Below are positions 25,234 to 62,579 of a stretch of 64,000 nucleotides of DNA, piece by piece; the stretch's first letter is position 1, and every line of letters starts with the position of its first letter. The stretch is from a virus. The stretch is taken from the IMG/VR virus record IMGVR_UViG_3300027983_000009, positions 1 to 64,000 of that record, one strand, 5' to 3'. The position numbers and the translations under genes were made by a program. The notes beneath the pieces were generated by a model, which searched no databases, was not told where the DNA came from, and saw only the letters and a program-made list of their open reading frames with translations.

Positions 25234-25567
25234 CTGTGTTGTGAGGCTTACTCTGTGTTTGAATCTTCGACGATTTTGTGGTTGTAACCGGTTACAGCCA
25301 CTCGTCGGTCGGTTTCGGTAGATATTCCGTACGACCATTTTGCGAGGGTTGAATTTCTGGAGAGGCTGCGACATGATACGCCCATCATTTGTGACGGATA
25401 CATTTGACGAGTTTCTTGGGGCTGCCGCGTTGGCTAGCTGTTTTCTATTGCTGCCTGCAAGTTGCAGTGATACCGTTGCGTCAGTGCCTGTGAGTGGTCC
25501 TCGTATCTGTAAACCTTACACCCTACCGTCTCGGTGGGGCCTCGTTAACATGAAGGATGTTGAATTT

Positions 25568-25828
25568 ATGGTAGATGATATGCCGGAACATGATGAGCCG
25601 CTCTACAGTGGTGCGGACAGTGATTTGCTGGTGGCCCCCGCAGAGGAGGATGCAGCAAAGGTCAATGGTTTCGTTAATGACGACTTCGCCGAAGATGCCG
25701 ACGATGATGCCGATGACGACGATGACGACGATGATGATGATGACGATGACGATGACGATGATGATGACGACGATGATGACGACGATGATGACGACGAAGA
25801 AGACTACGACGACAATTTTGCAGGTTAG
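25568..25828 (+). CDS. Highly acidic poly-Asp protein
   Basis: (GAY)n tract ~25700-25812; AAGGA RBS; followed by terminator. Confidence 0.6.
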   Translation: MVDDMPEHDEPLYSGADSDLLVAPAEEDAAKVNGFVNDDFAEDADDDADDDDDDDDDDDDDDDDDDDDDDDDDDDDEEDYDDNFAG

Positions 25829-25876
25829 CCCAGCTTACAACGCAGCCTGCGTTGTTCTGGGGGCGAGTTGAGCGAG

Positions 25877-25908
25877 AGAGCGGGGGTTAATCCCCTCGCT
25901 CTTTTTTT
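25877..25908 (+). terminator. Intrinsic terminator
   Basis: AGAGCGGGGG/CCCCTCGCTCT-type stem + T7. Confidence 0.7.
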
Positions 25909-25918
25909 GTTTGGTCAC

Positions 25919-25946
25919 GCCTCTGTAGCGGCTTCATTTCTGCAGA
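25919..25946 (+). repeat. Cas12m-repeat-like pseudoknot motif
   Basis: GCC TC TGTAGC GGC TTCATT TCTGCA GA. Confidence 0.7.
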
Positions 25947-25972
25947 CAAATATACAGAACTGGGTGTTCTTG

Positions 25973-26224
25973 ATGCGACATGGTTTGGTACCGGGTCATA
26001 ATGTTGACCAGCTGGATATCCGAGCAGGTCTGGAGGAGCTCAAGCTGTGCGGCTATACGGAGCTTGAAACTGTGCAGGTCATCCAATATGCGATGCTGCG
26101 GTGGCGGCGAGGCGAGGAGGAGGCTGCAGAGCGGGGTGCAATCAATACTGAGTTCCATGGGATAAGTATGACATGTTGGAGACGTGTGCTGGCTGCAGCA
26201 ATGGCTGCTGTGGCTGATAAGTAG
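25973..26224 (+). CDS. Hypothetical protein
   Basis: ORF between two repeats. Confidence 0.45.
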   Translation: MRHGLVPGHNVDQLDIRAGLEELKLCGYTELETVQVIQYAMLRWRRGEEEAAERGAINTEFHGISMTCWRRVLAAAMAAVADK

Positions 26225-26233
26225 TGTTCCAGT

Positions 26234-26261
26234 GCCTGTGCAGGGGCCTCGTATCTGTAAA
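26234..26261 (+). repeat. Cas12m-repeat-like pseudoknot motif (a decayed sister copy is at 25486-25513)
   Basis: GCC TG TGCAGG GGC CTCGTA TCTGTA AA. Confidence 0.7.
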
Positions 26262-26277
26262 TGGGGAGAAGGGCGAT

Positions 26278-26997
26278 ATGAGCGATCTTGAGGTATTTGT
26301 GCTTTGCCACCCGAGAAAGGTGTGCACGACGACGCAACTCCTGCAGCGAGCAGGCGTTACACACACGATGTATGTGAATGAGGACAGTGATTTACCGTTT
26401 GACCATGCCGAATACTCGGTAGACCGGTCCTGGCGGCCATCTCAGCGGGATTACGCGGTTAGGCAGTACAGAGCGATGTACGGGCACACCCAGATCCACA
26501 AACGCTCAAACGCGGCCATTACGCTGGTCTTTGAGGACGACGTGAAGCTCGGGTCGCTGACTAAGGCTTACTTGCGTAGGGCCATGGATGTGTGTCAGGA
26601 TATTTTTGAGGTGTACCCTGATGTTCAGGCAATCAGCTTCCATGGCAGGAATCTGTCGCCTAATCGGCCGATCGTGTCGCTGCCTGGCATGCAGTTCAGT
26701 GCGTTGCAGACCAAGCCGCTCACAGAAGAAGCGCAGGTCAGGTTCCTGGAGCCGCTCTGGAAGGTTTCCATGGGTCTGACTACTCCTCCTGCGCTCAAGT
26801 GGCACGAGGGTTGTTTGATGTACGCTGTTAATGAGTCAGGTCGCAAGATCTGGGCTGATACAGACTTGAGGCAAGGTTGGCCTTGCGACCTGTTCCTGGT
26901 GAATAAGCTGAACACGCTGGTTGTAACGAACTCGCCCGTTATGCATAACGAAACTGGCTCACTGATGACTCGTCCGCTCTACGAGTCACCGGTATAG
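26278..26997 (+). CDS. Glycosyltransferase family 25-like
   Basis: AMYGHTQIHK...LVFEDDV; MYAVNESG; WPCDLFL. Confidence 0.6.
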   Translation: MSDLEVFVLCHPRKVCTTTQLLQRAGVTHTMYVNEDSDLPFDHAEYSVDRSWRPSQRDYAVRQYRAMYGHTQIHKRSNAAITLVFEDDVKLGSLTKAYLRRAMDVCQDIFEVYPDVQAISFHGRNLSPNRPIVSLPGMQFSALQTKPLTEEAQVRFLEPLWKVSMGLTTPPALKWHEGCLMYAVNESGRKIWADTDLRQGWPCDLFLVNKLNTLVVTNSPVMHNETGSLMTRPLYESPV

Positions 26998-27003
26998 CGC
27001 TGT

Positions 27004-28284
27004 TTAGCTGGCCTTTGGTGCCAGGATGGCTAATCGCTGGAGCAGGGAGTGGATTTGGCCTCTGAGGTCCTGCTGCCCCTGCTCCAGACTGGCCACCCGT
27101 TCGGTGAGGAAGGTTAACCGTACTTCCGGGGCATCCATGTTGCAGACAGCATCTGAGTGCCGGCAGAAGATGTATTGGCGTAATCCGGGCTGATACCACA
27201 ACTTTGGTGCCACAGGCTGCCAGATAAACGGTAATCGCTTCCCGGGAGCCAGTGTGAAGATGAGGTCCCCATCCTGACTGACTTCGCCAGCGCTTAGTAT
27301 TCTGTGTCTGGCCGGCATATCCTTCTCGGCTAGTGACAGCAGCCCGTTATGGGTTATTGGCTCTCCGAGGTAGACGGAGTACTCCATGTTCCATCGGATA
27401 GACTCAGGGACAGCAGAATCCCCGATTGTTGCGATGGTGGGCGACATGTCCTGAGTGTTGACTGGTTTGTCGAAGACCTGCAACGCTGTACCGAACGTAT
27501 CCCAGATAATCCCATAGCATGGTTGTCCTGTGTTATGCTGAATTTCCTGCATTTTCTTGCGAACAGCGATAATGTTACCCAGAGCAGTGCTCAGGGATGT
27601 CCCAGCGTTCGCATTAGCCCCGAAGCCCGGTCTGGTGTTCACGTACCAATTGACCCAATGCACAGGGATAGGGCGAATAAAGCGAGCGCTCTCTATGGTG
27701 ACCCCTGTGATGGTAGTTCCGATCACTGGTGCGTTCACGTCAGCCCATTTATTGTTGTCTACAGCACTCGTACGCAGGTCTTTCTGTCTGACGACCTCAC
27801 CGATCTGTAGATGTCTGTGTCCCGGAGGTGCGGATAACGTCCGCCACGTCGATCGAACAGGGTGTGCTACCATCGCACTCTGACGGTACATTGAATAGAC
27901 AGCAGAGTTTCCTTTGACAGTCTGCTTTATGCTGCCAGGGTCGCTGTGCCAGTACTTGGAGACGCCAAGACCGTACCAGCAGACAGGAACAGGGATCCAG
28001 TGCCCCTGATGCCAGTACACAGCATCCTCAGAGATAACCTGATCCCCGTAGACGATCTTGTAGTCCTCAGGAGACGACGGAGCACAGAATAGCTGGAATG
28101 CTGTAGGAACAGCCTCAGAGTGCCAGAAAGCCGCAGTAGTGAGCTCCCACGTACCTGTGCTGGTATTACCAACGTAACAGCTGGGAAAGATGACCTCCCC
28201 TTCGGTCATCAGCCTGTATGGGGCCTTCATACTGTCAATTAACCGGTGTGTGTGAGTGGGGAAGGATTCTGCAGCTTCTGACAT
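27004..28284 (-). CDS. Hypothetical repeat-domain protein, the only substantial minus-strand gene
   Basis: Long ORF with recurring (Y/H)R.L..GEV...D units; GGGAG RBS on minus strand. Confidence 0.65.
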   Translation of the reverse strand: MSEAAESFPTHTHRLIDSMKAPYRLMTEGEVIFPSCYVGNTSTGTWELTTAAFWHSEAVPTAFQLFCAPSSPEDYKIVYGDQVISEDAVYWHQGHWIPVPVCWYGLGVSKYWHSDPGSIKQTVKGNSAVYSMYRQSAMVAHPVRSTWRTLSAPPGHRHLQIGEVVRQKDLRTSAVDNNKWADVNAPVIGTTITGVTIESARFIRPIPVHWVNWYVNTRPGFGANANAGTSLSTALGNIIAVRKKMQEIQHNTGQPCYGIIWDTFGTALQVFDKPVNTQDMSPTIATIGDSAVPESIRWNMEYSVYLGEPITHNGLLSLAEKDMPARHRILSAGEVSQDGDLIFTLAPGKRLPFIWQPVAPKLWYQPGLRQYIFCRHSDAVCNMDAPEVRLTFLTERVASLEQGQQDLRGQIHSLLQRLAILAPKAS

Positions 28285-28428
28285 CTGTTGTACTCCCTGT
28301 GTTTTGCGTTGCTGGCACGGATATGCCTCTGCGGTCTTGTGTTCTTCGCCTCTGTGTGGCAGACTATAACCCTGAACTCCACCCCTTGCTACCAATCAAG
28401 TCAAACCAGCGGAAACAAAGGATTTATT

Positions 28429-29694
28429 ATGTCGGATGCACTTGCAGCGATCAGGGCGTGGAGAAAAAGTGCACTTGTTTCGCCAATGGTTGCACCGGGT
28501 AACACAGCACCAAGACAGCAGCCCGGGGCACGACATGTGATGGGGAGTGGAATACCGCAAACAGGGCTTTCGACGCAGCGAGGAAAGGCTCCAGCGTTTC
28601 CAGGGTTGCCAGGAAGTCCAGCAGGAAATCCCATAGAGACACACGGAGCGTTGGGGCCGGCTGGGACTGTGGATGGCAACCACGCAGCAGGTGTAGCGAA
28701 AGGATTTAAGATTGGCAGGGCAAGGCTTGCGGAGAAGGGTATGCAGGCAACTTCTTCTGGGAAAATCAATGTTTTTAGTAAAGATTCATCCCAGCTCCGC
28801 GGGTTCGTAGCAGGGCAGAGGAAGACTGCAGGCATGTATGCGGCTCATATTGTCTCGGCAAACCTACCACCTGAGCAGCGCAAGCAACTACTTGCGATAG
28901 CGAAGAACGTGGCCAGGTTTCGCCAAGCTATCGCGACAGATATGTCATCGCAGGGTTATCAGTCGTACGCTGGTGGAAGCACAAACTTCCGTGACGACAT
29001 ACTTGAGCAGTTTCTGGAAAAGAACAAGGATGCACAGGTGGAGGCTGGCGATTCTTATGAGATATCTGCGAGAGGTCCTCGTCGGTGGATGGGTTTGCGA
29101 CAAGGTGCACGTATTCCGATTGGGGAGGGTTACGCGACGTTAATGGATCATTTTGATGAGGGTGGGCAGGGGTATGAGCGTGACGAGTCTCATGCTGTAA
29201 CAGATTTTTACGGCGAGGTGGATCCCGCTATTCACAGCTTTTTAGGTCAGATGACAGGCGGCCGCTACAAAACACCGAAACCTCCGAAGGCACCATCTGC
29301 TCCGAAGTTAGAGGGTGTACCGGCGATAAAGGCGGCATTCAGACAACCGACTGATGTGTCGCCATACGCAGGTATTCATCGACGGATTCGCCACACTCTG
29401 GCGGGTGGTGCGATGGGCGGGTTAGTTGGTGTTGGGGTTGGTGGTTTAACTGGGGCTGGCGGGGCTGCCGGTGCCACAATTGGCGGGCTGCACGGCATGT
29501 TTAGCGATCCGGGTGTAGATGAGGAGGGCAAGAAGCGGAGCCGGATGATGGCTGCACTTCGTGGTTCTCTGGGTGGTGGGGCGTTGGGTGCAGCTGGCGG
29601 ATTGGCAGCTGGTGTTGGCGGGCTGGCTGGTGGTGCAGCTGGCGGCACAGTCGGGGCCAGCATCGACGACTGGCCCGTGGCGCCGCAGCTGTGA
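28429..29694 (+). CDS. Gly/Ala-rich protein with K-x-A motifs (possible virion-internal protein)
   Basis: KSA/KTA/KAA motifs, glycine-zipper-like C-terminal helices. Confidence 0.55.
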   Translation: MSDALAAIRAWRKSALVSPMVAPGNTAPRQQPGARHVMGSGIPQTGLSTQRGKAPAFPGLPGSPAGNPIETHGALGPAGTVDGNHAAGVAKGFKIGRARLAEKGMQATSSGKINVFSKDSSQLRGFVAGQRKTAGMYAAHIVSANLPPEQRKQLLAIAKNVARFRQAIATDMSSQGYQSYAGGSTNFRDDILEQFLEKNKDAQVEAGDSYEISARGPRRWMGLRQGARIPIGEGYATLMDHFDEGGQGYERDESHAVTDFYGEVDPAIHSFLGQMTGGRYKTPKPPKAPSAPKLEGVPAIKAAFRQPTDVSPYAGIHRRIRHTLAGGAMGGLVGVGVGGLTGAGGAAGATIGGLHGMFSDPGVDEEGKKRSRMMAALRGSLGGGALGAAGGLAAGVGGLAGGAAGGTVGASIDDWPVAPQL

Positions 29695-30070
29695 GCTCTC
29701 ACATATACGCTCTCACATATACTCTCTCACAGCACATTTTGACAACAATCCCAGCCTTGCGGGTTCGTAGCAGGATAACAGGGGGCCAAAGTATACAGCT
29801 CCTCACATATACTCTCTCACGTATACGCTCTCACAGCAATCCCAGCCAGGCGGGTTCATAGCACGGCAACTGCACAAGTCCTCACATATACTCTCTCACA
29901 ACAATCCCAGCTCTGCGGGTTCGAAGCAAGGCATGAACAGGGTTGTCACAGTGCACAATTCCTCACATATACGCTCTCACAGCAATCCCAGCCAGGCGGG
30001 TTCATAGCACGGCAGCACAGTCCAGGATCCACAATAACAATCCCAGCCTTGCGGGTTCGAAGCAGGGCAT
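29695..30070 (+). CRISPR. Degenerate CRISPR-like mini-array: 5 Cas12m-type pseudoknot repeats with interspersed CTCACATATAC(G/T)CTCTCAC motifs
   Basis: CAATCCCAGCyNNGCGGGTTCrwAGCA at 29746, 29837, 29902, 29983, 30038 with unique intervening segments. Confidence 0.5.
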
Positions 30071-30105
30071 CGCGTGCAGCCGGACAAACAAGCACAGGAG
30101 AAAAC

Positions 30106-31251
30106 ATGTTCAACAACCTCACGGATCTGCGGGCAGTCCACTGTCTATATGTGTTGACGCATCCGGATAGCCAGCTACAGAAGCAGGCCATCAACATGAA
30201 GGGTCTTTCCAAAGTCCTGTCCCGTACAGCCTCCAAAACAATGGGCAGGCCTGTGGCAGGACCTGGAGCTGCACCGATACAGTCGCCGGTCAGGCAGATG
30301 CGTGTGCCTACACCGGCGCAGCAGAAATCAATCACCACATCAATGGCGACCAAGGTACCGCCGCCACCAGCCAAGTCGTTGGCGACCAGAGCTGTAGCAG
30401 CTGTGACACCTGCTGTGAAGGCTGTCGCGGCACCCAGATCGAGACCGGCACCAGCGTTGGTAGAAGCGAACATAGGCAAACCTTTGCCGAGTCGTGCTGG
30501 TAGAGCCCTCAACACTGTCGCTAACGTGCCTGCAGGTGAGAGATTTCGCCAGAGGCCAGTCATGAACACAGCAAAACTGCTGTCCGCTGACGGTGTGCCG
30601 GGTATGCGTAGGCTGAATCAGGCCGCGGCTGCCGGCTTGGTGTATTCGGGAGCTCGGGGCCTCAGTGATGCGAATCAGGCTGTGAACGATTCGATCTACA
30701 ACACGACCAGCGATTATGGTGTGCAGGCTGGGCTGACACCTAATCAGAGAAGGAGGCTGAGTGAGCAGGGGCAGAAGGTCAAGCAGTACACGTTGCAGGA
30801 TGCAACCCTCGGGAGACTGAAACGAAATATTTTCGGTCATGGGGGTGACGAGGCTGCTGTAACCGCATCTAAATACAGAGATGAGTTGTACGGCTTGGCG
30901 TTGAATGATGCGATGAAATATCAACTCTCTAAACCTGCTGTGGGTCGCGGTATGTTGGATTCCCTAATGCATTACAGAAGCCCGGCTGCTGCAGCTGTGT
31001 CAGGTGTGCAGCAGGCGGGTAAAAACTATCTGGGTGGTCATATGGAGTACAACGATCCAGCTGCGTACGCTGGGCCGATACAGCAAATGTACTCTACTAT
31101 GAGGCCAGAAAACGAGCAGGATGCTAAGGATATGGCAGCAGCTGCTGTTCAAGGCGGCTGGAAACACCTGACACCAGAGCAGCAGCGGAAGCTGATTGAG
31201 AAGGTTGGACCGGCTGCAATAGCAGCAATGACTGCAAGTGTCGGCAGGTGA
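30106..31251 (+). CDS. Ala/Pro-rich hypothetical protein with KQA motif
   Basis: AGGAG RBS; long ORF. Confidence 0.6.
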   Translation: MFNNLTDLRAVHCLYVLTHPDSQLQKQAINMKGLSKVLSRTASKTMGRPVAGPGAAPIQSPVRQMRVPTPAQQKSITTSMATKVPPPPAKSLATRAVAAVTPAVKAVAAPRSRPAPALVEANIGKPLPSRAGRALNTVANVPAGERFRQRPVMNTAKLLSADGVPGMRRLNQAAAAGLVYSGARGLSDANQAVNDSIYNTTSDYGVQAGLTPNQRRRLSEQGQKVKQYTLQDATLGRLKRNIFGHGGDEAAVTASKYRDELYGLALNDAMKYQLSKPAVGRGMLDSLMHYRSPAAAAVSGVQQAGKNYLGGHMEYNDPAAYAGPIQQMYSTMRPENEQDAKDMAAAAVQGGWKHLTPEQQRKLIEKVGPAAIAAMTASVGR

Positions 31252-31296
31252 CGCCAACGCATCACAGTAAACAGTAAACAGTATAGGAGGCAGAGT

Positions 31297-31584: not shown

Positions 31585-34500
31585 ATGAAGCAGGTGAAGT
31601 TAGAAAAACTCACACAAGAACAGATCGCGCAGCTCCCGCTGCACACAGAGAAATGGTTGGAGATAGGGCTATCATGTGAGCCGTGCGATTTCGAGAAGGC
31701 CAAAGCGGCTGCAATCGAGTGCTACGTAGCAGCTGGGCTGGAGCCGCCCAAATTGTTTCTTCTTTTCGATTCGCCCATAGCGGCGGCTATGGGGGCGGTA
31801 GCACTGCAGTCTATTGCCTCGGATCAAGGTATGGAGCGGCTCCAGCACCAGCTCAGGAATAAAATCTTGGCGAAGGCCTGGGCGCAGGTCAGTGATCAGG
31901 TCGGTGCGAAGGTACGGGATCATGTCAAGGGACAGGTCGGCGATAGGATCGTGTATCAGATCTGGCAGACGGTCCGGGATTCTCTCACTGCTCAGGTCGG
32001 TGATCGTGTCGATGCTCAGGTCAGCGAGCAGGTCACCGAGCAGGTCGGTAAGCAGATCAGGAATCAGCTCGCTGAGCAGGTCTTGGCTCAGCTCGACAAC
32101 CAGGTCAGTGCTCAGGTCAGTTCTATGATCAACGATCGGGTCACGTGGTCGGTACGGGATATGGTCAACGGGGGGGTCAGTGATATGATCCGCGAGCAGG
32201 TCACGTGGCCGGTACGGGATATGGTCAACGAGGAGGTCTCGGATCAGGTCCGGAATCAGCTCACTGATCAGGTCTTGGAGCCGGTCGGTGATGCGATCCA
32301 CTCGCAGGTCTCGGAGCTGCTACGGGAGCAGATCTGGGAGCAGGTCCGAGATCAGATCTGGGGTCGGATCGATACTCAGATCCGTGATCATATCCGGGAA
32401 CAGGTCGGCGATGATATCAGTGAGCAGATATGGGAGGCGGGCAATGCTACGCTCGCGGTTCGGGATCAGCTCTTGAGGCCGGTCCAGGATCAGGCCTGGG
32501 AGGTAGCCCAAGAGGCGATTGCGCATACTCCAGGCGAGAAAGTCAGCGATCAGGTACAGGTTAAGGTCTTGGGGCAGATCTGGGGTAAGCTCTGCGAGGA
32601 GCTCAGTAGTGAAGTCTTGGATCAGGTCATGAATCATGTCGTCGAGCCGGTCGAGCCGGTTATGTCGCAGATCCGGGACCGAATCCGGGAACAGGTCGGC
32701 GAGCAGGCCCAGGATCAGGCCAGTGCGGGGGTCCGCATTCAGGTCGATGCGCATGTCAGGTATGGGGTCACCGAGCCGGTCGGTGAGCAGGTTGGTACTC
32801 GTGTCTGGGGGCAGGTCTGGGCTGAGGCCAATAACCAGGTCAGTAATCAGGTCGCTGCACAAATCAGTGAGCTGATCAGTGGGCAGGTCGGTGAGCATGT
32901 CTGGGGTAAGGTCCGTGGTCCGGTCTCGGCTCAGGTACGCGAGAGCGTCGGTGAGCAGATCCAGGAGCAGGCTTGGAAGCAGGCCAGCGAGCAGACCCTT
33001 GAGGAGGTCGGTGATCAGGTCTCGGAGCCGCTCAGCGAGCCTGTCCGTGGGATGATCCGGGATCACGTCTTGGGTCAGGTTATTGATCAGATCCATGAGC
33101 AGATCAGCGAGACGGTCCGTAGGGTGATCCTGGGGCAGGTCAGCGGGCAGGTTCGGGAGCAAGTCTGGGAGCAGATCCGGATGCGCGTCAGCGGTCAGGT
33201 CGGCGAGCAGGTCCGGGATACTGTCTCGGGTCAGGTCCATGAGCTGGTCAGCGAGACGACCATGGAGCAGGTCGGTGATCAGGTCTGGGGTCGGGTCATG
33301 AACACTGTAGGTGCACAGGCCCGGGCAGGGGGCCAGAATCAGGATTCGACTTGGGATCGGGTACAGGTTAAGGTCTTGGAGACTGTAGCGGATACGGTAC
33401 GAGAGCAGGTCTTGAATCAGCTCAACGATCAGGTCTTGGAGCAGGTAGGTATGCCGGTATTGGCGCAGATCCAAAATCAGGCTCGGGAACAGGTCGGTGG
33501 TCAGGTCAGTGATCAGGTCAGTGATAGGGTCAGTGATCAGGTCAGTGATGAGGTTCGTGCGGAGGTCTCAGCCCGGGTCCGGAATTCGATCTGGGATCAG
33601 GTCATGGAGCAGGTCCGGCATCAGGTCGATGCGGATGTCAGGGATCTGGTCGGCGGGCAGATCCAAGAGCAGACCTCGGGGCAGGTCAGAAATCAGGTCT
33701 GGGCTCAGACCTGGGATAAGGCCTGGGAGAGTATCAACGCGACGATCCGGGAGAAAATCAGCGAGCAGGTCCGAGAGCAGCTCAAGGATCCGGTCAGGAC
33801 TCAGGTCTGGGATCAGCTCCGGAGTCCGATCTGGGGGCAGGTCCGAGATCAGGTCGGCGAGCCGGCCATGGAGCAGGTCGTGGATCAGGTCTCGAATAAG
33901 GTCTCTGATCAGGTCAACACGGCGATCATGGATCAGGTCCGGGGGCAGGCCCGGAAGCAGACCCAGGAGCAGACCCCGGAGCAGTTACGAGAGCAGCTCC
34001 TGAATAAGGTCAGCGATCAAGTTTTTGGATCGCACGACGTAGGGTGGTTATCTTATTACGCATTTTTCCGCGAGCATTGCGGGTTAACGGAGGCTACAGA
34101 TAAACTTTCCGGACTGCTTGAGCTGGCCAAGAACTGTGGCTGGTGGGCACCGTATAAGGGTGTGTGCATTTTTCAGCACCGGCACAGTGAGCTGCACCGA
34201 GATGAAGCGGGGCGACTGCACAACGAGACAGGGATGGCGTGTCGGTACCGTGATGGTTTTGGGGTCTGGTCGCTTCACGGCATACTAGTGGATGAGCAGA
34301 TTGTTATGCGACCGGAGACACAAACGGTTGCGCAGATCAACGAGGAGACGAATCAAGACATCCGATCTATCCGAATCACCCGGTTTGGGTGGGCCAGGTA
34401 TATTGAAGAGTCTGGTGCGGTGTGTGTGCACAGCATGATCAATCAGATCAGCAACACACCAGAAGCGTTGTACCGATTGGCAGACAATTCACAGAGGCTT

Positions 34501-34623
34501 GTTGCTGGCTGTGTGACTGGTAAGATGGTTACGATGGGTGTCCCATCTACCATCATGACGTGCGAGCAGGCTCAGCTGTGGCTTGCTGGCGACAAAAAGT
34601 TCAATCTGATAGCAGCTACATGA
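31585..34623 (+). CDS. DUF6745-like protein with large internal (QVxx/DQV) repeat expansion
   Basis: N-term KLTQEQ...WLEIGL...DSP; C-term GSHDVGWLSYY...CGWW...GRLHNETG..RYRDGFGVW; ~730 aa of periodic repeats. Confidence 0.75.
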   Translation: MKQVKLEKLTQEQIAQLPLHTEKWLEIGLSCEPCDFEKAKAAAIECYVAAGLEPPKLFLLFDSPIAAAMGAVALQSIASDQGMERLQHQLRNKILAKAWAQVSDQVGAKVRDHVKGQVGDRIVYQIWQTVRDSLTAQVGDRVDAQVSEQVTEQVGKQIRNQLAEQVLAQLDNQVSAQVSSMINDRVTWSVRDMVNGGVSDMIREQVTWPVRDMVNEEVSDQVRNQLTDQVLEPVGDAIHSQVSELLREQIWEQVRDQIWGRIDTQIRDHIREQVGDDISEQIWEAGNATLAVRDQLLRPVQDQAWEVAQEAIAHTPGEKVSDQVQVKVLGQIWGKLCEELSSEVLDQVMNHVVEPVEPVMSQIRDRIREQVGEQAQDQASAGVRIQVDAHVRYGVTEPVGEQVGTRVWGQVWAEANNQVSNQVAAQISELISGQVGEHVWGKVRGPVSAQVRESVGEQIQEQAWKQASEQTLEEVGDQVSEPLSEPVRGMIRDHVLGQVIDQIHEQISETVRRVILGQVSGQVREQVWEQIRMRVSGQVGEQVRDTVSGQVHELVSETTMEQVGDQVWGRVMNTVGAQARAGGQNQDSTWDRVQVKVLETVADTVREQVLNQLNDQVLEQVGMPVLAQIQNQAREQVGGQVSDQVSDRVSDQVSDEVRAEVSARVRNSIWDQVMEQVRHQVDADVRDLVGGQIQEQTSGQVRNQVWAQTWDKAWESINATIREKISEQVREQLKDPVRTQVWDQLRSPIWGQVRDQVGEPAMEQVVDQVSNKVSDQVNTAIMDQVRGQARKQTQEQTPEQLREQLLNKVSDQVFGSHDVGWLSYYAFFREHCGLTEATDKLSGLLELAKNCGWWAPYKGVCIFQHRHSELHRDEAGRLHNETGMACRYRDGFGVWSLHGILVDEQIVMRPETQTVAQINEETNQDIRSIRITRFGWARYIEESGAVCVHSMINQISNTPEALYRLADNSQRLVAGCVTGKMVTMGVPSTIMTCEQAQLWLAGDKKFNLIAAT

Positions 34624-34636
34624 AAGAGGTCGCATC

Positions 34637-38702: not shown

Positions 38703-38730
38703 GCCTACTTGGGGGCTTCGTAGCCAAGCG
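38703..38730 (+). repeat. Cas12m-repeat-like pseudoknot motif (CTTGG/CCAAG stem variant)
   Basis: GCC TA CTTGGG GGC TTCGTA GCCAAG CG; operator GTTATGAATAAC at 38670-38681 upstream. Confidence 0.7.
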
Positions 38731-42370: not shown

Positions 42371-43891
42371 AGATCTGCGATAACTGTAGGCTGGAGAAAA
42401 ACATACTTATCCTACTAGACAGCGAGTTTGGCGGCGGAGGTGTGGAGCTGTGTGTGCACTGCCACGACAAGCTGGCGAAGCAGGTCGAGAAGATAAATAG
42501 CCGATTGGCAGCAATTCGGGACAGGGCTCGGCAGCGGGCCTTCAAAGAGTTAATGAGTGAGAACCCTCTACCTATCCGGGTTCAGCGAGCCCGGTGGGCT
42601 ATCACAGCGTTACTGTTGACTCTGTTTAGCTCCTCCACAAAGGGCGAACCGTGAGCACAGGGAAGCAGATGTGTGATCGCGAGCAAACGCCACTTTACTC
42701 GATAGGTACGTGGGATACGCACAGACAGGCCTTCACGCCGCATCGGGGGCTGTCTGTGCCGTCTTTCAACATTACTATCCTCCAGTTGAGGGTAGCTATG
42801 CGGGAGCTGCAAGAGACGGGCTATAGGTGCCACAGGTACCGAGGCCTAAACGGCGGAGAGGAGGACAATGACACGAGTGTGCTCATTGAAAGAACAGACG
42901 GGCAACCCTGGCGGGATATCCGTCGGGGTTGGAACAGATAACGAGCACCTAACACGCGAAGGGTTGAGAATTATGATGCTTGAAGAGGGTAAATACTACA
43001 AGAGCAGAGATGGGTATATAGTAGGCCCGGTAAGGCTAAGACTGCCGGTCGAGCGATATACTACTTTCCCATTCACGAGCCAGCTCGGAATAACGTACAC
43101 GAATAACGGGGTGGTTTATCGCACGCACGAGACAGGCGACGATTTGGTAAGCACGTGGGACCCTGTTGTGGCTCTAGCAGCACAGGCAGCACCGGTAGCA
43201 CCGGTAGCACCCGTTTCAGACAGTTGTGCGATCACGGGCATACCGTGGGTAGACTGGTTTAATCTGCAGAGCGATACCGATAGGCGGGTGATTGCGATAG
43301 AAGCACTTGCGGAGCTGCTCAGCCAGGCCACAATACTTGTCCGCACAGTTGGGGATACTGATGAAGTGGAATCTCTGTGTTGGGACAGCGGCGGAGAGAG
43401 TTTGAGTATACCCCTCTAGAGTGGTGAGTATGTTTGGTTATTCTGCAGAAATGAAGCCGCTGCAGAGGCATGCCTACCACTGTACGCTGAACTTGAGGCA
43501 GGTCAACTTCACAGGTAAAAAATTGTGTAACAGCACCACGGAATTACGAGATAACGAGAAACAGAGGGGACTAGACATGCAGATTTTTGGATCAAAACTC
43601 TGGCGGTTCTTTGGCGGAGAGAGGATTGAGGATGGGTTCAGACAGCTGTCCGACAGCATTATCAGTAACCGCAAGTTGATTTCAGAACTGCGCACAGAGA
43701 TCCTGTTGTTGCAGCGGAGAGTGTGGGCATTAGAATCGCACACTATTGAGGAGTCCGTGGCAGAGTGCGAGAAGAAGCTTGCGTCGTTTGAGGCGAGTGT
43801 AATAGCGTGGGCACCGATAGCACCAGATGAGCCGGACGCGCCGGATGTGGCAGTTGAGCCGGACGCGCCGGATGTGGCAGTTGAGCCGTGA
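42367..43891 (+). other. Four hypothetical CDS (42367-42654 CxxC, 42651-42941, 42973-43419, 43577-43891)
   Basis: Overlapping start/stop codons, RBSs. Confidence 0.5.
43442..43530 (-). promoter_or_regulatory. Antisense sigma70-type promoter + pseudoknot repeat cassette (copy 1)
   Basis: Minus strand: AT tract, TTGACC-16-TACAGT, 9 nt, GCC TC TGCAGC GGC TTCATT TCTGCA GA. Confidence 0.65.
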
Positions 43892-47371: not shown

Positions 47372-47419
47372 GCCTACTTGGGGGCTTCGTATCCAAGCTG
47401 CTCCGGTTGAAAGGGATGT
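47372..47419 (+). ncRNA. Pseudoknot repeat + candidate self-targeting guide (47400-47419)
   Basis: GCC TA CTTGGG GGC TTCGTA TCCAAG CT, then GCTCCGGTTGAAAGGGATGT, matching 47541-47560 (17/20) behind TTT. Confidence 0.55.
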
Positions 47420-47426
47420 GGCTACT

Positions 47427-47726
47427 ATGTCTAAATCATCTGAAGCTCTACAGCGTGCGTTCATAGCAGACCCCGGAGCTATCCGGTCGCTGATGTTGAA
47501 CAGAGCGCCGTGCAATGCGGCTCTGGTTGACCATGAATTTGTTCCGGTTGAAAGAGATATGTGTATGCCGGGGGCGCATTTCACAATCAGCGCTATTGGG
47601 CTGGTCAACGCAGTACTTGCAGCGAACGGCCTGCCGCTGGTTGCAGGTATGTGGGAGGATGGCGAAAAGGTAGGGTGTGACAATTTTGTAGGGTTCTGTG
47701 AGTGCACACCAACTGTAGAGATCTAA
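47427..47726 (+). CDS. Hypothetical protein (contains the candidate protospacer)
   Basis: MSKSSEALQRAF.ADP...CN..LVDH...IGLVNAV. Confidence 0.6.
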   Translation: MSKSSEALQRAFIADPGAIRSLMLNRAPCNAALVDHEFVPVERDMCMPGAHFTISAIGLVNAVLAANGLPLVAGMWEDGEKVGCDNFVGFCECTPTVEI

Positions 47727-48248
47727 TCTAAGGAGGTGAGCCGTGGATGCAGATAACCTAATAGCGAGAGCCAGAAGGCAGCAAGTTGTCGGCAATGGCA
47801 AGGCGCAGATTGCGGCCCTCGTGTACGAACTGGAGATGCGGGAGGCTCAGGTGGGCGGTATGACAATCCGCTTGCATGAAGCTGAGTCACAGTTAGCGAA
47901 CTACATCAAACTTATTAAGGAAGGCGCAGCTAGGCGTCTTAAGCAAGGGGGTGTATAATGTTCAATAGACACAATAATATGGATGGGATGGCGGCACTAG
48001 CCAGTTCCGGTTGGGGTGGTGTTACTTCGTGTGGATATCCCAGTGATAGTGCGGGTTACTGCGAGTAGGGCTACCCAAGACGGGTTGCCAGCCCAGCTCG
48101 TTGTTGTGTTTCCGCAAGGTAGGCTGTGTGTCGAGGATATGAGTGGCGACTGGCAAGCTGTGCGGACCCCGCCAAAGATGTTGAAGACAGTCGCGATGAG
48201 AGAGCAAGCAGCGGTAAGCCCCGTAGCAAACACCAGACAGGAGTAGAT

Positions 48249-48608
48249 GTGGGAGAATTTGAAAAGTCAAAACTGCCAGTAACCTTCGAAGAGTGGGCCA
48301 CACACCCCAGACCCAAACCGCTAGACGCAGACGCCCTGGAGCTGTGGCTAGCTGCGCAGGGGCGTTGTAAACCGTGCCCATTTTGCGGCACAAGCCGTAC
48401 GCTAGTGTCTAGCGAGCTGAACGCTCAGACTAATATTTACATCACACACATTGCCTGCAGTAACTTCAAGTGCTTCGTTGTAGTAGCAGGTAATTCGAGA
48501 TACAGCCGATTGCAGGCACAGCAGGAGGCGTTTAACAAGTGGCAACGCAGACCGGCAGGAGTAACAGAAACAGGAGACAATAACCCACCCCTCAAGCAGC
48601 TACCGTAG
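48249..48608 (+). CDS. Lar-family (restriction alleviation-like) Zn-ribbon protein
   Basis: KPCPFCG...CSNFKC...AFNKWQRR. Confidence 0.55.
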   Translation: MGEFEKSKLPVTFEEWATHPRPKPLDADALELWLAAQGRCKPCPFCGTSRTLVSSELNAQTNIYITHIACSNFKCFVVVAGNSRYSRLQAQQEAFNKWQRRPAGVTETGDNNPPLKQLP

Positions 48609-48639: not shown

Positions 48640-48667
48640 GCCGTTGCAGAGGCTTCGTGGCTGCGAG
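48640..48667 (+). repeat. Cas12m-repeat-like pseudoknot motif
   Basis: GCC GT TGCAGA GGC TTCGTG GCTGCG AG; operator-like ATTATTAATAAC at 48617-48628. Confidence 0.65.
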
Positions 48668-48682: not shown

Positions 48683-49678
48683 ATGACAAAAAACCAGCAA
48701 TCTCTACCTGTGGGCGAGCGTCGGGTTCGTTGGGTAGCAGCTGAACGAGATGACTCTTCGTTCGTAACGGAGTACAGGCTTATCGTTGGCAAGCTTATTA
48801 GACGCGGCAAGATGCGGTGTGTAGCGACAGTCTGGGTTAAACCGGAATGCAACTATGCAACGTGGCACACGTGGGACATTCAAGGGACAGGTGGCGAGAA
48901 TAGTGTTGAGTACGCCGACAGCTGCGAGGCAGCTACGCTGCAGGCTAAAGGTATGGCGTCATTAGCGGCAATTACTCAGGGTTTCGTGTAGGTAATCAGC
49001 AGGAGAGTAATATGACAGAGCCGTGCTATATGTTGAAGATAGCAGACAGGCTGACAGGGCATGCGCACTGTGGAGCGAGCGACGCAGAGGCTGCGGCAGA
49101 CATCATCAGACAGGTGCACGGTATTCTGGTGCAGGTGCGGCAGCAGTATTTACTCCCGACAGAGGCCGGATACCGTGGAGGGCTGAGTCAGGAAGTGCGA
49201 GCACAGATCATGACACTACTTTGAAGAGGAGCAGAGAGAAGTGAAGAAACAGAAAGCAGCACTAACTGAGGCGCAGCAACCACCAAAAACACTACGCGAC
49301 TTAAAGGTCGGTGACAGCGTGTTTGTTGTGCATCAGCGTGGGAGGTGGGATCCTGCAGAGTATAGGACAGCGGTTGCCACTGTGGTAAAGGTGGGTAGGT
49401 TGTACGCATACATTGAGCAGGGTGTGTACAGTGACCTGTCACCGTTCTGTCGCGACACTGGGTCTAGCGTCCACCCGGGTGATGGTAATGTGAGATCTAA
49501 TAACCGCGGGTTTGATGTGCACCTGTCACAGCAAGGCTACCATGAATCCGGGCAGAGAAGCGCGGAGATGGCCAGGCTGACCAGACGGATCATCGCGAGG
49601 ATGGGTGATCTGATACAGCTACCGCCAGAAGTTGTGACAGCGATACACAAGCTGTTGGACGACGCCAAGCTGGATTAG
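48683..49678 (+). other. Three hypothetical CDS (48683-48991, 49012-49224, 49241-49678 SH3-like 'LKVGDSV..VVKVGR')
   Basis: RBS-preceded ORFs. Confidence 0.55.
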
Positions 49679-49691: not shown

Positions 49692-49769
49692 GTGTAGTGC
49701 CGCTGCAGAGGCGTAATATCTGCAGAGCCCAGAATATGGTGACAACCCTGCCGACGTTCGGCGGGGTTG
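49692..49769 (+). ncRNA. Repeat + 16-nt segment + hairpin immediately upstream of cas12m
   Basis: GTGTAGT GCC GC TGCAGA GGC GTAATA TCTGCA GA; 12-bp hairpin 49743-49769. Confidence 0.55.
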
Positions 49770-49809
49770 GCAGCAAGCAGCAAACATCAAACAGAGAGCA
49801 GGAATCAGA

Positions 49810-59204: not shown

Positions 59205-59968
59205 TGTCAGACTCTGCAGTATTCGTAACGCAGCTCCTGGGATTGCAGGTAGTGCAAGCCGGGCTGCTTGAGTGTGCCCACAGCAGCGGTCCGCCGGTAG
59301 GTCAGACTGCTGACGGCCCTGTTGTGGGATTATTCCGTGTGCGGAGAGAGCTGGATGTGTCTCCGCAGGTTCAGAAGATTGCGGAGTCTGTATTGGACGG
59401 GGATAAGGATATCCGTATCGGCGGAATCCGCATTGTGATACCGGTTAGCAGGCAATACGTGTTTGCTACACCGCTGCCAGTATTCGTAGCAGCGGTAGGT
59501 ACTGAGTTCAACGTATCGATTAGTAAGCTGGAGCTGATCCGGGACGAGCAAACCTCACAACCTGCGATCCTGGTTACGACAGCTTCCAGCATCAAGCCAG
59601 ACTTGGTTGTGGTGCTGGCGGTGTTGCCGGAAAATAAACCGGATACTGAGCCGTCGGGTTTTGATATCTCACTGATCACCACCAAGTTGCTGCAAACCAA
59701 CCGTGTCCCTGCGCAGCATACTGCTGCAATCATTAAAGCGACCCAGCACGCCTGGCGGACAGGGATGGCAACCCAAACAGCTTCGAGGATGCTGCCCAAG
59801 ACAGGCAAGAAGGCATCACAGCACCAGCTTGAGGCTGCGGCTCGAGAGATAGTGAAACAGCTGGTAGATCAGCAGGTTGTCACGATGGGCCTATTTTTCT
59901 GGATGCGGCTGGGTTATTGGCTTCTCACTATTATCATGCTCCTTCTGGAGCAACCAGACAGCGACTAG
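59204..59968 (+). CDS. Hypothetical protein with C-terminal TM segment
   Basis: TAATG overlap. Confidence 0.55.
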   Translation: MSDSAVFVTQLLGLQVVQAGLLECAHSSGPPVGQTADGPVVGLFRVRRELDVSPQVQKIAESVLDGDKDIRIGGIRIVIPVSRQYVFATPLPVFVAAVGTEFNVSISKLELIRDEQTSQPAILVTTASSIKPDLVVVLAVLPENKPDTEPSGFDISLITTKLLQTNRVPAQHTAAIIKATQHAWRTGMATQTASRMLPKTGKKASQHQLEAAAREIVKQLVDQQVVTMGLFFWMRLGYWLLTIIMLLLEQPDSD

Positions 59969-60011
59969 ACCGTTGTGGTCTTGCAGTCGTTTTTGTTTTT
60001 TTGGCTGTTAC

Positions 60012-60079
60012 GCCTCTGCAGAGGCTTCGTGTCTGCAGCTGAAGAAATGAAGCCTCTGCAGAGGCTTTGTGTCTGCAGA
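60012..60079 (+). repeat. Two tandem pseudoknot repeats (60012, 60052)
   Basis: GCC TC TGCAGA GGC TTyGTG TCTGCA x2, 40-nt period. Confidence 0.7.
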
Positions 60080-60142
60080 GGCAGAGATACTGCGCCTGCG
60101 AATGGTGCATCATCAGTTCACTGTAGCTATGTAGGGAGTAAC

Positions 60143-61189
60143 ATGCAGCCACGACTGGACCGTATAGGTGATATCACCAGAGCAGCTGTCACGCAGCTGT
60201 TTATGCAACTGCTCAACCCGCAGCGGCGATACAGAGTGGCAGAGTTTGACTTTACTACGTACGACATTGCTAAGCCTGTAGTAGAGGCTGCGCAGTTCAT
60301 GCTATCTCAAACACTGACTCCGACAGAGATCGATACTGTGCGTAAGAAGTCAGTAGAGCTGTGGAAGAGATATGTGAGCATGACCGGAGTGGCTGAGTGG
60401 TGCGGAGAAGGAGCTGACGGCTCTACCCCGGAGAAGCTGATGATGCGGTGGGCTACAGACGCCCAGCAGCTGCTGGAAGCTGGCACACGCGAAGACTTAG
60501 CGGAAGCTAAGACGCACATGACACTGATACAGAACACGATTAAAGAGCTACAGCAGCAACGTGGTATTTCGGGCACACCAGTCAGCAGGCCACCAGCTAT
60601 ACAGCAGAGAAAGAGGAAGTAGTGTGAGCAGGCTTGTGCAACTACAGTCGGTGATTGGAGACTAAGCTATGTTAGCGTACGGAGCTAGAGTTATTGAGTT
60701 CATGGACGGCCCATTACAGGGCGAGTTTCACGAAGTAGAGAACGGCTTCCCGTGCCCGGATAGGATGTCCGTACCAGATGCGACAGCGAAGTGGGAATAC
60801 ATATACGACATAGATAGCAGTACAGGCAGAGCGACCTTCGTCAGCGAGGGTGTGCGCAGATAGCAGGAGACACAATGAGCGTCAAATACATCCGATACAC
60901 AGACGAGAAAACAGAGCCGGTAGCTCGCAAACCTATCAGCGTAGGTAAAGACCCGGCAGCACAGGGTTTCCTGAGGATGTTTGGTCAGCCGACCAAGCTA
61001 CCAGGTCAGGACGACGAGGGTTACGGCGGCAAGATCACCACAGACAAGATGGTCTACGTCAACCGTAGTGATACTAGCACCAATGGCAACGCTAGAGGCG
61101 GTCGCTGGTACCGCGTGTATGCAACTTGCTACGGCAATGCGACATCCTCTTGGGTGCTCATAGGAAAAACTCGGTACCACTTACGTTGA
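60143..61189 (+). other. Three hypothetical CDS (60143-60622, 60669-60863, 60875-61189)
   Basis: GGAG RBSs. Confidence 0.55.
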
Positions 61190-61218
61190 CCGCAGAGGCA
61201 GCAAACAGGACGTAGCGA

Positions 61219-61307
61219 TCTGCAGAAATGAAGCCTCTGCAGGGGCATGACTAGCACTGTACGCTGAACCTGTGGCGAGTCAACTGCACAGGTAAAAAAT
61301 TGTGTAA
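61219..61307 (-). promoter_or_regulatory. Antisense promoter + pseudoknot repeat cassette (copy 2)
   Basis: TTGACT-16-TACAGT, 9 nt, GCC CC TGCAGA GGC TTCATT TCTGCA GA. Confidence 0.65.
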
Positions 61308-61415
61308 CAGCACCACGGAATTTGAAGAGACAGCAAACAGAAAGCAGGAAAATCATGAAAGACCAGGACTACTACAAAGAGCTCTACCCAGTGATCCTAG
61401 ACCGTTGGTTTTTAC

Positions 61416-61463
61416 GCCTCTGCAGGGGCTTCGTGTCTGCAGCTTACGGCAATGCGACATCCT
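61416..61463 (+). ncRNA. Pseudoknot repeat + segment matching 61129-61148 behind TTG
   Basis: GCC TC TGCAGG GGC TTCGTG TCTGCA GC then TTACGGCAATGCGACATCCT (19/20). Confidence 0.45.
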
Positions 61464-61679
61464 CTTGGGTGCTCATTGGAAACATTCAGTACCACTTACG
61501 TTGACCGCAGAGGCAGCAACAATGGTTACGGGAAATAAGGTGACGGTTAAAGAAGAGCACAAGAAGACCAAACAGCCAGCAGCTGGATACAGTCGACCAC
61601 TTGGGGAGTCTTGTGCTGAGTGCGGGTTAATATTTGGACAGCACCGCCATAATTGCAGTAAACAGAAAGCAGGAAAATC

Positions 61680-62306
61680 ATGAAAGACTGGGACTACTAC
61701 ACCGAAACGGACGTTCGATTTTACGGATTCAAGGAAGAGAGTACTCTGTTTAGTGAGCGATTGCAGGCGATAGACGCAGCAAAACTAACAGCAGAGGAGC
61801 GAGAGACGGCCAAGAGAGAGCTGAAGCCGACGATTCGCCGAGAGTTTCGGGAATTAAATGCTCCGCACAGGGCGGCATTAAGACGCAAGCAAGACGAGTT
61901 CTGGGCAGACGCCCGGGAAGATTTGGGGTATACCGAGACCTTGTCGAAGGAAGCTGTAGCAGCCATGGAGAGCGAAGCCTGGGAGCAGGAGCACTCTGAT
62001 GGTTTCTCTGAAGTGTACATCGCACTGCAAGACTTGTGGGCTGTTGTTGAGGCGGCAGCGGCAGCGGCAGTTAAAGTCGCTACCGTGCCGGCTGAGACGG
62101 CAACCAAAAAACCGGAAAAGAATACGAGACAGATCCGCCAATTGCAAGACCTGACAACAGCGGTGATGATCTCGCTGAATCACAGTTCGTCGCCTAGGGT
62201 CGTTGGGATTGCTAGGGACACTGCTAGCAACACGCCGAATGTACTGCTCGCTACAGCTCAGGATGTACCTATCCGTATTACTGTAGATCTGCAGGTGGGG
62301 CTCTAA
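61680..62306 (+). CDS. Hypothetical protein
   Basis: AGGA RBS; F.AD...LG...AWEQ.HSDG..EV motif. Confidence 0.6.
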   Translation: MKDWDYYTETDVRFYGFKEESTLFSERLQAIDAAKLTAEERETAKRELKPTIRREFRELNAPHRAALRRKQDEFWADAREDLGYTETLSKEAVAAMESEAWEQEHSDGFSEVYIALQDLWAVVEAAAAAAVKVATVPAETATKKPEKNTRQIRQLQDLTTAVMISLNHSSSPRVVGIARDTASNTPNVLLATAQDVPIRITVDLQVGL

Positions 62307-62307
62307 G

Positions 62308-62526
62308 ATGGCCAGATTCACAATCGCAGAGCTGAAGGCTGGTACGTGCAGCATGACAGAGCTGGCTCGCGTGATAGATTTGAAATTGAGTAGATGGCCG
62401 GGGAATTGCGACTTTGTGGCGACGAAGCTGGTAGAGTACGGCCAATTACCGGGCCGCGTAGTGCGAGGTCACTACCATGGCCGAATATCATCTGCAGAAA
62501 TGAAGCCTCTGCAGAGGCATGCCTAG
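62308..62526 (+). pseudogene. Probably truncated gene running into the antisense cassette
   Basis: Last 12 codons are cassette sequence (SAEMKPLQRHA*). Confidence 0.4.
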
Positions 62527-62579
62527 CACTGTACGCTGAACTTGAGGCGAGTCAACTGCACAGGTAAAAAATTGTGTAA
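62491..62579 (-). promoter_or_regulatory. Antisense promoter + pseudoknot repeat cassette (copy 3)
   Basis: TTGACT-16-TACAGT, 9 nt, GCC TC TGCAGA GGC TTCATT TCTGCA GA. Confidence 0.65.

Follow-up and report, generated by a model that had tools for sequence, protein, structure and literature searches.

How can a CRISPR effector obtain its guides when no array accompanies its gene? CRISPR effectors are thought to require arrays or one dedicated guide gene. The question is raised by IMG/VR record IMGVR_UViG_3300027983_000009, a linear phage sequence of 82,680 bp whose bases 1–64,000 form the 64,000-nt window analysed in this study. The window encodes a homolog of Cas12m, the effector of type V-M systems (plus strand, 49810–51801), and carries a 28-nt motif that is scattered between its genes. 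A sequence-only reading of this DNA had proposed a nuclease-dead Cas12m served by dispersed solitary repeats instead of a CRISPR array. The best explanation reached here is a type V-M system without an array in the DNA examined, in which the motif is the CRISPR RNA (crRNA) handle of the phage's own Cas12m, whose RuvC site is predicted to be inactive; the probability of this reading is put at roughly 0.5. It is very probable that the copies are cognate Cas12m-binding handles under selection. Readings in which they are decoys, inert relics or elements of unrelated function were ranked as less likely.

Distribution of the motif

The motif is laid out as S1 (GCC or CCC), 2 nt, S2 (6 nt), S1′ (GGC or GGG), 6 nt, S2′ (6 nt) and 2 nt. 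A covariance model, R1, was built from 25 window copies only (alignment A2) and run over the whole 82,680-bp record, as the sequence-only reading had suggested. It returned 28 matches at E ≤ 1, of which 25 lie at E ≤ 8e-4 and three are decayed; all are confined to positions 25,486–62,518, and no copy was found at 1–25 kb or 62.6–82.7 kb. The 22 intact copies listed earlier (14 on the plus strand, three on the minus strand and five of CCC/GGG type) all recurred with this layout, the true starts of the five at 29.7–30.1 kb being 29750, 29841, 29906, 29987 and 30042. The three decayed copies of the same list were also recovered: 25486–25513 (plus strand, S1′ broken, E 0.007), 52104–52128 (minus strand, 3-nt deletion in S1′, E 0.027) and 54423–54439 (plus strand, a weak match to the 3′ half only, E 0.43). 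Three further copies came to light, at 28790 and 55956 on the plus strand and at 60032–60065 on the minus strand.

A strict pattern, in which S1, S1′ and at least 4.5 pairs in S2:S2′ were required, gave 24 hits in the record compared with 1.3 ± 1.1 (maximum 5) in 50 first-order Markov shuffles; one of the 24, at 10308 on the minus strand, looks like a chance hit. R1 gave no match in four other viral records (63, 192, 129 and 84 kb; 468 kb together) and a single weak match in a fifth of 117 kb. No Rfam family matched the window DNA, the motif included, at gathering thresholds. All 22 plus-strand copies, 25486 included, are intergenic, lying between the end of an open reading frame (ORF) and the next start that is preceded by a Shine-Dalgarno (SD) sequence, at 9–292 nt from the former and 9–103 nt from the latter. 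In eight or nine window copies the start codon follows within 23 nt, with the SD sequence inside the would-be guide. A terminator-like hairpin precedes some copies (25919, 60012) and −10-like hexamers precede others; copies of the same stem class cluster locally.

Pattern and R1 scans found no regular array of evenly spaced, identical repeats with unique spacers in the 82,680 bp. The claim that solitary repeats stand in place of an array thus holds for the DNA at hand, with two limits: CheckV rates the record as 57% complete, and the irregular five-copy cluster at 29.7–30.1 kb, the nearest thing to an array, is array-like.

Identity of the motif with type V-M repeats

R1 knows only the scattered copies, and it finds regular arrays directly behind cas12m in a series of viral or metagenome contigs (L002, L004, L011–L013, L024, L025, L035, L041 and L065), as well as a decaying array in L045. 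This identifies the motif as a type V-M repeat. In L002, a 10-repeat array with a period of about 72 nt starts 35 nt behind a cas12m homolog of 47% identity; its 36-nt repeat has an 8-nt 5′ part, reads GTATCAAT-GCC-TA-CTCAGT-GGC-TTCGTA-ACTGAG-AC, and has the same loop as the window copies. The repeats of L004 and L045 follow the same plan. In the PmCas12m scaffold, positions −28 to −26 pair with −17 to −15, and −23 to −20 with −6 to −3 (10.64898/2026.03.26.714355). The register of the window handles, 3-2-6-3-6-6-2, equals that of this scaffold and parallels that of MmCas12m2 (PMC10442227), so the match to the type V-M fold asserted earlier is sustained by the published registers as well as by the arrays of the relatives. 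The MmCas12m repeat quoted in the sequence-only reading agrees with all 13 nucleotide identities named in one section of PMC10442227, a comparison confined to those nucleotides.

Motif and gene also occur together. A DNA pattern for the motif gave 22 loci on 16 contigs of IMG/VR, and 11 of the 15 viral records retrieved by the pattern alone encode Cas12m (the 2.2-kb contig L091 was left out of this count); the other four are fragments, 9–59% complete. In L002 and L012, two handle copies lie upstream of cas12m, the second of them 13 nt from its start. The genes common to this phage and the loci of its Cas12m relatives are cas12m, ThyX (in L075; L002/L012/L013 share a stretch of 39 aa) and one further ORF (in L061). 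Homologs of cas12m gave one match, of 28% identity, in 185,579 species genomes, and the close ones stand almost only on viral or metagenome contigs.

A gene for a Phage_ProQ_C_like protein of RNA-chaperone type (49241–49678) lies directly upstream of cas12m. This gene, together with the −10-like hexamers before some copies, could suggest that the motif serves another factor, either as a site for the ProQ-C-like protein or as a phage promoter or processing signal. The same motif, however, occurs as arrays behind cas12m in unrelated phages with no other gene in common with this one, the ProQ-like gene was not found beside cas12m in those loci, and Rfam offers no match; the chance that the motif belongs to such a factor is very slight.

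Lone repeats are not peculiar to this phage. The complete 153-kb genome G010 (L113, L118–L126) has 40 R1 matches at at least 10 loci, as mini-arrays and lone copies that all end in AC, and R1 matches away from cas12m are also present in G008 and G009. This recurrence in other Cas12m phages makes the arrangement a class to study and not a one-off. As a separate observation, G010 has two cas12m homologs, one with an in-frame TGA; the cas12m genes of G009, G010, G012, G017 and G018 each contain one in-frame stop (TGA or TAA) within an otherwise full-length match. These stops could be pseudogene mutations, recoding or assembly errors.

Maintenance of the pseudoknot

The pseudoknot (((..[[[[[[)))......]]]]]].. 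was tested over 216 cells in 24 distinct copies. Compared with shuffles, whose figures are not probabilities because the copies are mutually related and the structure was read from them, 94.0% of the cells are paired (shuffles 74.3 ± 1.9%, with 0 of 500 reaching the observed value) and 40 are changed on both sides (shuffles 14.4 ± 3.3; 0 of 500), and six of the nine pairs show a double change, a count matched by 142 of 500 shuffles and so not significant alone. Pairing fell to 33–53% when the partner was slid. Pair 1:14 has gone from G-C to C-G in six copies, and double changes are found in five of the six S2 pairs. This shows that both helices of the pseudoknot are maintained by compensatory changes. 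A rival plain hairpin of 5 bp (GCCTC...GAGGC) has not been conserved: of the 24 copies, 14 break one of its two extra pairs and 13 the other.

The effector and the handle-guide junction

The 663-aa product of cas12m, P0001, matches the Cas12m entry 23vw of the PDB at E 3.1e-44. The family profile A1 matches 23vw (3e-113), Cas12m2 8hio (6.5e-58, positions 18–611) and 8pm4 (1.1e-46); in Pfam, P0001 has a TNB domain only, below threshold (22.2 vs 26.3 bits). By these matches P0001 is a true Cas12m homolog over its length. Its RuvC positions are H342, P530-D531 and D617, so that two of three are non-catalytic (H342 and P530) and the RuvC-III Asp is kept. The RuvC-I residue is His, as in MmCas12m2, throughout P0001–P0010, and the RuvC-II residue is A or P in P0001–P0009; the zinc-ribbon cysteines of the CxxC...CxxC motif (C589, C592, C607 and C610) are invariant. 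From this non-canonical site we infer that the RuvC of P0001 is inactive, and the designation as a nuclease-dead Cas12m stands, as homology for the family and as a sequence prediction for the nuclease. Published Cas12m proteins bind DNA without cutting, whatever their triad (PMC11013384); they process their own pre-crRNA, bind DNA at a TTN or YTN protospacer-adjacent motif (PAM) and silence by a roadblock (PMC10442227; PMC11013384; 10.64898/2026.03.26.714355). The gene is directly flanked by two copies, as had been reported: 49699–49726 lies in its leader and ends 83 nt before the ATG, and 51820–51847 begins 18 nt past the stop, at the site of the first array repeat in relatives (both plus strand).

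The MmCas12m2 residue His269 recognises C(−1) and is stacked on G(−23) (PMC10442227). Its equivalent was located by counting on the profile alignment, in which Arg237, Arg241, Arg245 and Arg270 also fall in place. The residue is His in 12 of 13 members of the A1 family and in all array-bearing loci; it is Ser (S293) only in this phage and in its siblings L009 and L010. The RNA differs at the same junction. Array repeats end in AC in 16 of 17 cases in L012, 11 of 11 in L025 and 12 of 13 in L114, whereas the window copies end in GA, CA or AA, with a sole AC-ending copy at 53675. The Ser at the His269 position and the lost terminal AC argue that Cas12m and its handles evolved together, and on this sequence evidence both are shown to have changed together at the handle-guide junction.

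Units with predicted promoters

Three copies on the minus strand form units of their own. Their handles lie at 43442–43469 (22 nt from the stop of a convergent gene at 43419), 61219–61246 (29 nt from the stop of a convergent gene at 61189) and 62491–62518, behind conserved promoter cassettes at 43470–43545 (TTGACC-16 nt-TACAGT), 61247–61322 and 62519–62579 (both TTGACT-16 nt-TACAGT). Cassette comparison shows that the three units have 61–76 nt in common, with TTGAC[TC]-16-TACAGT placed 9 nt before the handle, and that the conservation ends exactly at the 3′ end of the handle.

In PMC10651486, what defines solitary repeat units (SRUs) and RNA anti-CRISPRs (Racrs) is a lone repeat placed directly behind a promoter in a phage genome. 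The three units here, together with the many copies, could thus be taken for decoys of this type that soak up the V-M effector of a host or a rival. SRUs, though, are described there without cas association, whereas this phage encodes the cognate effector amid the copies, and the effector has changed with them. A host V-M system is not evident, since the species genomes gave the one match of 28% identity, and the majority of copies sit inside gene leaders instead of dedicated small-RNA genes. The decoy reading is therefore considered highly improbable.

Comparison with sibling strains

L009 and L010 belong to the same species as this phage (Cas12m 98–99%, DNA 96–98%). Within the 7.5 kb that they cover, all four of the larger strain differences touch a handle, with breakpoints at or inside the repeats. 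A 299-bp gene insert starts exactly at the 3′ end of the copy at 47372–47399 (plus strand; breakpoint 47399). In L009, a replaced cassette ends with a handle of its own exactly where homology restarts, at 48439; L009 also has a hybrid copy at 48640–48667 (plus strand) and lacks the gene that follows (breakpoint 48640–48667). In L010, a 767-bp two-gene insert replaces the AC-ending copy at 53675–53702 (plus strand; breakpoint 53675–53702). The presence of handles thus varies among siblings, with breakpoints at the handle 3′ end. The empty site at 48439 in this phage reads ...TTTA and then matches the L009 flank at 19 of 20 positions.

Other observations were made at these sites. The 5′ two-thirds of a gene for a Lar-like protein (restriction alleviation; 48126–48608) are replaced in L009 (943–1452) by a zinc-ribbon gene that ends with a handle, and a start-less 3′ remnant of the Lar-like gene is left there. 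A second intergenic element, a hairpin AACAGCGGTTGTTACGTT followed by an A run, stands at other strain-specific inserts of L010 (5440–5491 and 6420–6490).

The breakpoints could also mean that the copies are relics: the repeats and promoter cassettes of a decayed array, spread by duplication and illegitimate recombination, which now serve as shuffle points or do nothing. That all four larger differences, in 7.5 kb between strains 97–98% identical, break at or inside repeats agrees with this, as do the local clustering of copies of the same stem class and the three decayed copies, and the Promoter early Stem-Loop (PeSL) elements offer a precedent (PMC2839356, PMC4122927). Neutral copies, on the other hand, would not keep both helices by compensatory changes in 24 distinct copies with 94% of cells paired. 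Just three of 28 copies have decayed, cas12m itself is intact, and its junction-reading residue has changed together with the handles. Purely inert or recombinational copies are thus improbable.

Proposed mechanism and search for guide targets

If the motif is the handle of the phage's own Cas12m, all handles would be transcribed, three from their own sigma70-like promoter cassette and the others in gene leaders or between cistrons. Cas12m would bind each handle, cleave immediately 5′ of it in the manner of other Cas12m proteins, and then keep the next 17–20 nt, which are plain flanking phage sequence, as a guide. In the phage's own DNA the handle would occupy the position of the PAM, and self-silencing would not occur; no copy of 25 ends in YTN, which lends slight support to such self-sparing (P about 0.05). 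A co-infecting sibling or related phage would be bound and silenced if it had the same flank next to a T-rich PAM. Where the flank is a ribosome-binding site with a start codon, as in eight or nine copies, the leader would be covered by the bound protein and the translation of the gene gated, relatives of cas12m itself included.

These steps can be drawn together as a flank-as-guide device, proposed here tentatively and with the odds against it. A lone handle placed before the phage's own DNA would make a guide from that DNA and remove the PAM from the own copy; each insertion would mark self, silence siblings that lack it in a drive-like exclusion, and put the neighbouring ribosome-binding site under Cas12m control, with array and acquisition unneeded. 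Given cognate handles, competition between phages and control of the phage's own transcripts are equally plausible as the main purpose, each somewhat short of an even chance. The remaining odds go to both purposes or neither; sibling exclusion and leader control are not mutually exclusive.

Support for targeting of competitors comes from the closest array-bearing relative. Spacer 7 of the L012 array (12440–12476) matches the cas12m of the sibling strain L002/L013 (11512–11548) at 37 of 37 nt, with GTTT as the 5′ flank, and the cas12m of L012 itself differs at this site. The arrays of the L012 and L002/L013 strains have almost no spacers in common despite near-identical flanks. At the level of sequence this shows phage-borne V-M systems of this clade directed against sibling phages and using a T-rich PAM, like those of Mm and Pm. 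The 156 distinct spacers from the arrays of relatives, compared with all sequences of the analysis, gave no match on this phage. The notion of a weapon against competitors thus draws on the spacer of a relative and on one polymorphic site, and the flanks of this phage have yielded no such target.

Several results count against the proposed reading. The flanks, as putative guides, lack a convincing second match in the phage genome: 27 flanks gave 47 matches at ≤4 mismatches, compared with 34 for 27 random 18-mers, and the matches at ≤2 mismatches are repeat-derived or local duplications. The best matches of flanks in the cas locus, from the flank of 49699 to 50977 and from that of 53675 to 49766, have three mismatches each, and their number is close to that expected by chance. 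Outside the phage, the three promoter-driven flanks have 1, 1 and 0 exact 20-nt matches in species genomes (both in metagenome-assembled genomes of Sphingobacteriia) and 0, 0 and 1 in viral contigs, when chance alone should give about one exact match for every 20-mer in the genome collection. These candidate host or competitor targets were rejected: the three contigs are AT-rich (31–44% GC), have nothing in common with one another or with the phage by tblastx, and carry ATT, ATC and ATT beside the match, with no TTN. The idea that Cas12m is a programmable regulator of own, host or competitor genes, advanced in the sequence-only reading, accordingly found no target to uphold it.

The remaining points concern the copies themselves. 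The second polymorphic site, 53675, shows in the sibling an allele that matches poorly and is preceded by GAC. Promoter-like sites overall number 13, compared with 12.2 in shuffles, and so show no excess. The terminal AC, which MmCas12m2 reads base-specifically, is lost, and some copies may therefore load poorly. Closeness to start codons was scored at 7 of 21 against 9.9% (p = 0.003), a result downgraded because its null, all positions, ignored the intergenic location of the copies; the closeness is not clearly above what a 28-nt element demands in gaps of 50–130 nt. The ~43% of the genome that is missing may contain an ordinary array. Binding, processing and transcription of the handles are all predicted from sequence features.

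Two further self-targets were tried and rejected. The flank of 47372 (47400–47421) matches at 47541 (near-repeat at 47539–47560; 22 nt, two or three mismatches, TTT upstream), 169 nt further on in the strain-specific insert; this site is a second start region, and a duplicated ribosome-binding site explains the match, the alternative being a protospacer directed at the phage itself. The 61416 flank lies within a duplication of about 90 nt.

The lack of a trans target in the phage also fits a purely cis-acting regulon, in which Cas12m would be an RNA-binding regulator. It would bind the handles, cut polycistronic RNA and cover or stabilise leaders, shutting off or tuning small early-type genes and regulating itself, with no DNA targeted; RegA and RegB of phage T4 offer a comparison. 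All 22 plus-strand copies are intergenic and co-directional with genes, eight or nine with an SD sequence and start within 23 nt, and cas12m has a copy in its leader here and one abutting its start in L002 and L012. The change of the His269 equivalent to Ser and the lost terminal AC suggest a relaxed presentation of guides, and the diversification of stems with compensatory changes fits long-term selection on RNA structure. Against this, three units with a strong promoter of their own face against the genes with no ORF to regulate, P0001 is of full length with all domains alignable to DNA-binding Cas12m, and start-codon closeness is weak evidence in compact gaps. We know of no Cas12 that acts as a cis RNA regulator. 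A regulon of this kind alone is considered unlikely; the crRNA-handle reading remains the best account of the locus.

Other features of the region

The annotation used PHROGs and Pfam for 91 window ORFs and PHROGs for 24 ORFs of 64–82.7 kb, and left the majority unannotated. Nearly all genes of the record are on the plus strand, and the majority have no family match; among those that do are a UvsX-like recombinase, ThyX, a RuvC-like resolvase and several methyltransferases. No Cas1, Cas2, Cas4 or RNA polymerase was seen among the annotated ORFs of the 82.7-kb record. No virion genes were seen among them either, which means that the structural module is absent from the record and that a large part of the genome is missing. 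No tRNA was found, and megablast of 47–56 kb against GenBank phages gave no match.

The other handles, on the plus strand, are as follows. The copy at 25919–25946 comes directly after a terminator-like hairpin and T run, and that at 26234–26261 has an ORF end 9 nt before it and an SD sequence with ATG 16 nt after it. The copy at 28790–28817, a CCC/GGG variant, is likewise followed by an SD sequence and ATG after 16 nt. A non-coding cluster at 29697–30105 holds five CCC/GGG handles, spaced by 91, 65, 81 and 55 nt: 29750–29777, 29841–29868 (with two internal S2 mismatches; alignment and R1), 29906–29933, 29987–30014 and 30042–30069. They are interleaved with tandem units of CTCTCACATATAC[GT] and lie upstream of a 381-aa gene that starts at 30106, 36 nt after the last copy, and has no relatives in IMG/VR. 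The CTCTCACATATAC[GT] units, tandem and dispersed, are iteron- or operator-like and stand before each CCC-type handle of the cluster (29697–30000); they could belong to the repeat as an extended 5′ portion, bind proteins or form an origin. The product of the largest gene of the handle-rich region (31585–34623) is 1012 aa long; it contains a DUF6745 domain (E 5e-28) and gives long matches of coiled-coil-like character.

Further along, the copy at 38703–38730 (alignment and R1) has a CTTGG/CCAAG stem. The copy at 53433–53460 is followed by an SD sequence and ATG after 15 nt, and its upstream 40 nt are common with the copy at 54979–55006; at 55412–55439 the SD sequence and ATG follow after 11 nt, and 55956–55983 is a CCC variant. 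At 60012–60079, two plus-strand handles (60012–60039 and 60052–60079) stand 12 nt apart and are overlapped by the minus-strand copy at 60032–60065; the opposed handles have the palindromic GCCTCTGCAGAGGC in common, and either strand could yield a handle. The approximately 77 nt that follow the copy at 61416–61443 occur a second time, at 61129, where they are preceded by a decayed 3′ half-handle.

Significance and comparison with known systems

The phage seems to supply a DNA-binding Cas12m from about 25 single handles within its own transcripts. If the handles are used, they would provide a natural example of guide RNAs excised from messenger RNAs, perhaps show a Cas12 at work on translation, and offer a path along which components of CRISPR systems turn into gene regulators or into weapons between sibling phages. 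The varied stems also map the tolerance of Cas12m, which is useful for engineering this small scaffold for CRISPR interference and base editing. Dispersed V-M repeats are not described among the top literature matches; supplements, including the SRU tables of PMC10651486, were outside this scope and might list V-M units.

Compared with type V-M systems (MmCas12m2, GoCas12m, PmCas12m), the effector belongs to the same family, its RuvC is predicted from sequence to be non-cutting as theirs is, and the handle is a two-helix pseudoknot of the same register; the published members are free of trans-activating crRNA, which was not searched for here. Unlike them, this phage has no regular array in 82.7 kb and at least 25 solitary handles over 37 kb. 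Its stems vary among copies, the terminal AC is lost, Ser stands at the position that reads it, RuvC-II has gone as well, and the loop has 6 nt, as opposed to 4 nt in Mm.

In the IS200/IS605 TnpB-omegaRNA system, the guide is the DNA that flanks the scaffold end, which is the same logic as that proposed here. A nuclease-dead relative acting as an RNA-guided DNA binder, as proposed for P0001, is a further likeness, to the nuclease-dead TnpB-like repressors named TldR (PMC10705468). This phage differs from TnpB-omegaRNA in that no transposase or transposon ends were seen, many scaffolds serve one effector, and a 28-nt crRNA handle takes the place of an omegaRNA of about 150 nt.

Viral SRUs and Racrs are, like the copies here, single CRISPR repeats in intergenic phage DNA, some of them directly behind a promoter; Racrs mimic host repeats and come without cas genes, whereas here a matching effector is encoded, the copies are roughly ten times more numerous, and most lie in gene leaders (PMC10651486). 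The cr-like RNAs and mini-arrays regulate cas and cargo genes, and about 34% of V-A loci have a repeat beside cas12a (10.1101/2023.03.03.530964). The standalone repeat directly upstream of the effector (49699; two copies in L002/L012) resembles these; their guides, however, are partly complementary to the promoter, when none here is so above chance, and the copies here extend far beyond the cas locus. PeSL elements of T4-type phages resemble the handles in behaviour, not in sequence, as repeated intergenic cassettes that border strain-specific small ORFan genes; they are described as promoter-terminator motifs without a link to a CRISPR effector (PMC2839356, PMC4122927).

The Cas12m of myxophage MV-1 is also phage-encoded and without adaptation genes, and a 2026 preprint calls it the first in a phage; the available part of this preprint does not mention dispersed repeats (10.64898/2026.09.14.751636). 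MV-1 differs in having an ordinary array with eight spacers and a D-E-D triad. Among the Cas12m phages with lone repeats, the present phage is the extreme case, with no array in the DNA examined, diversified stems and a changed junction.

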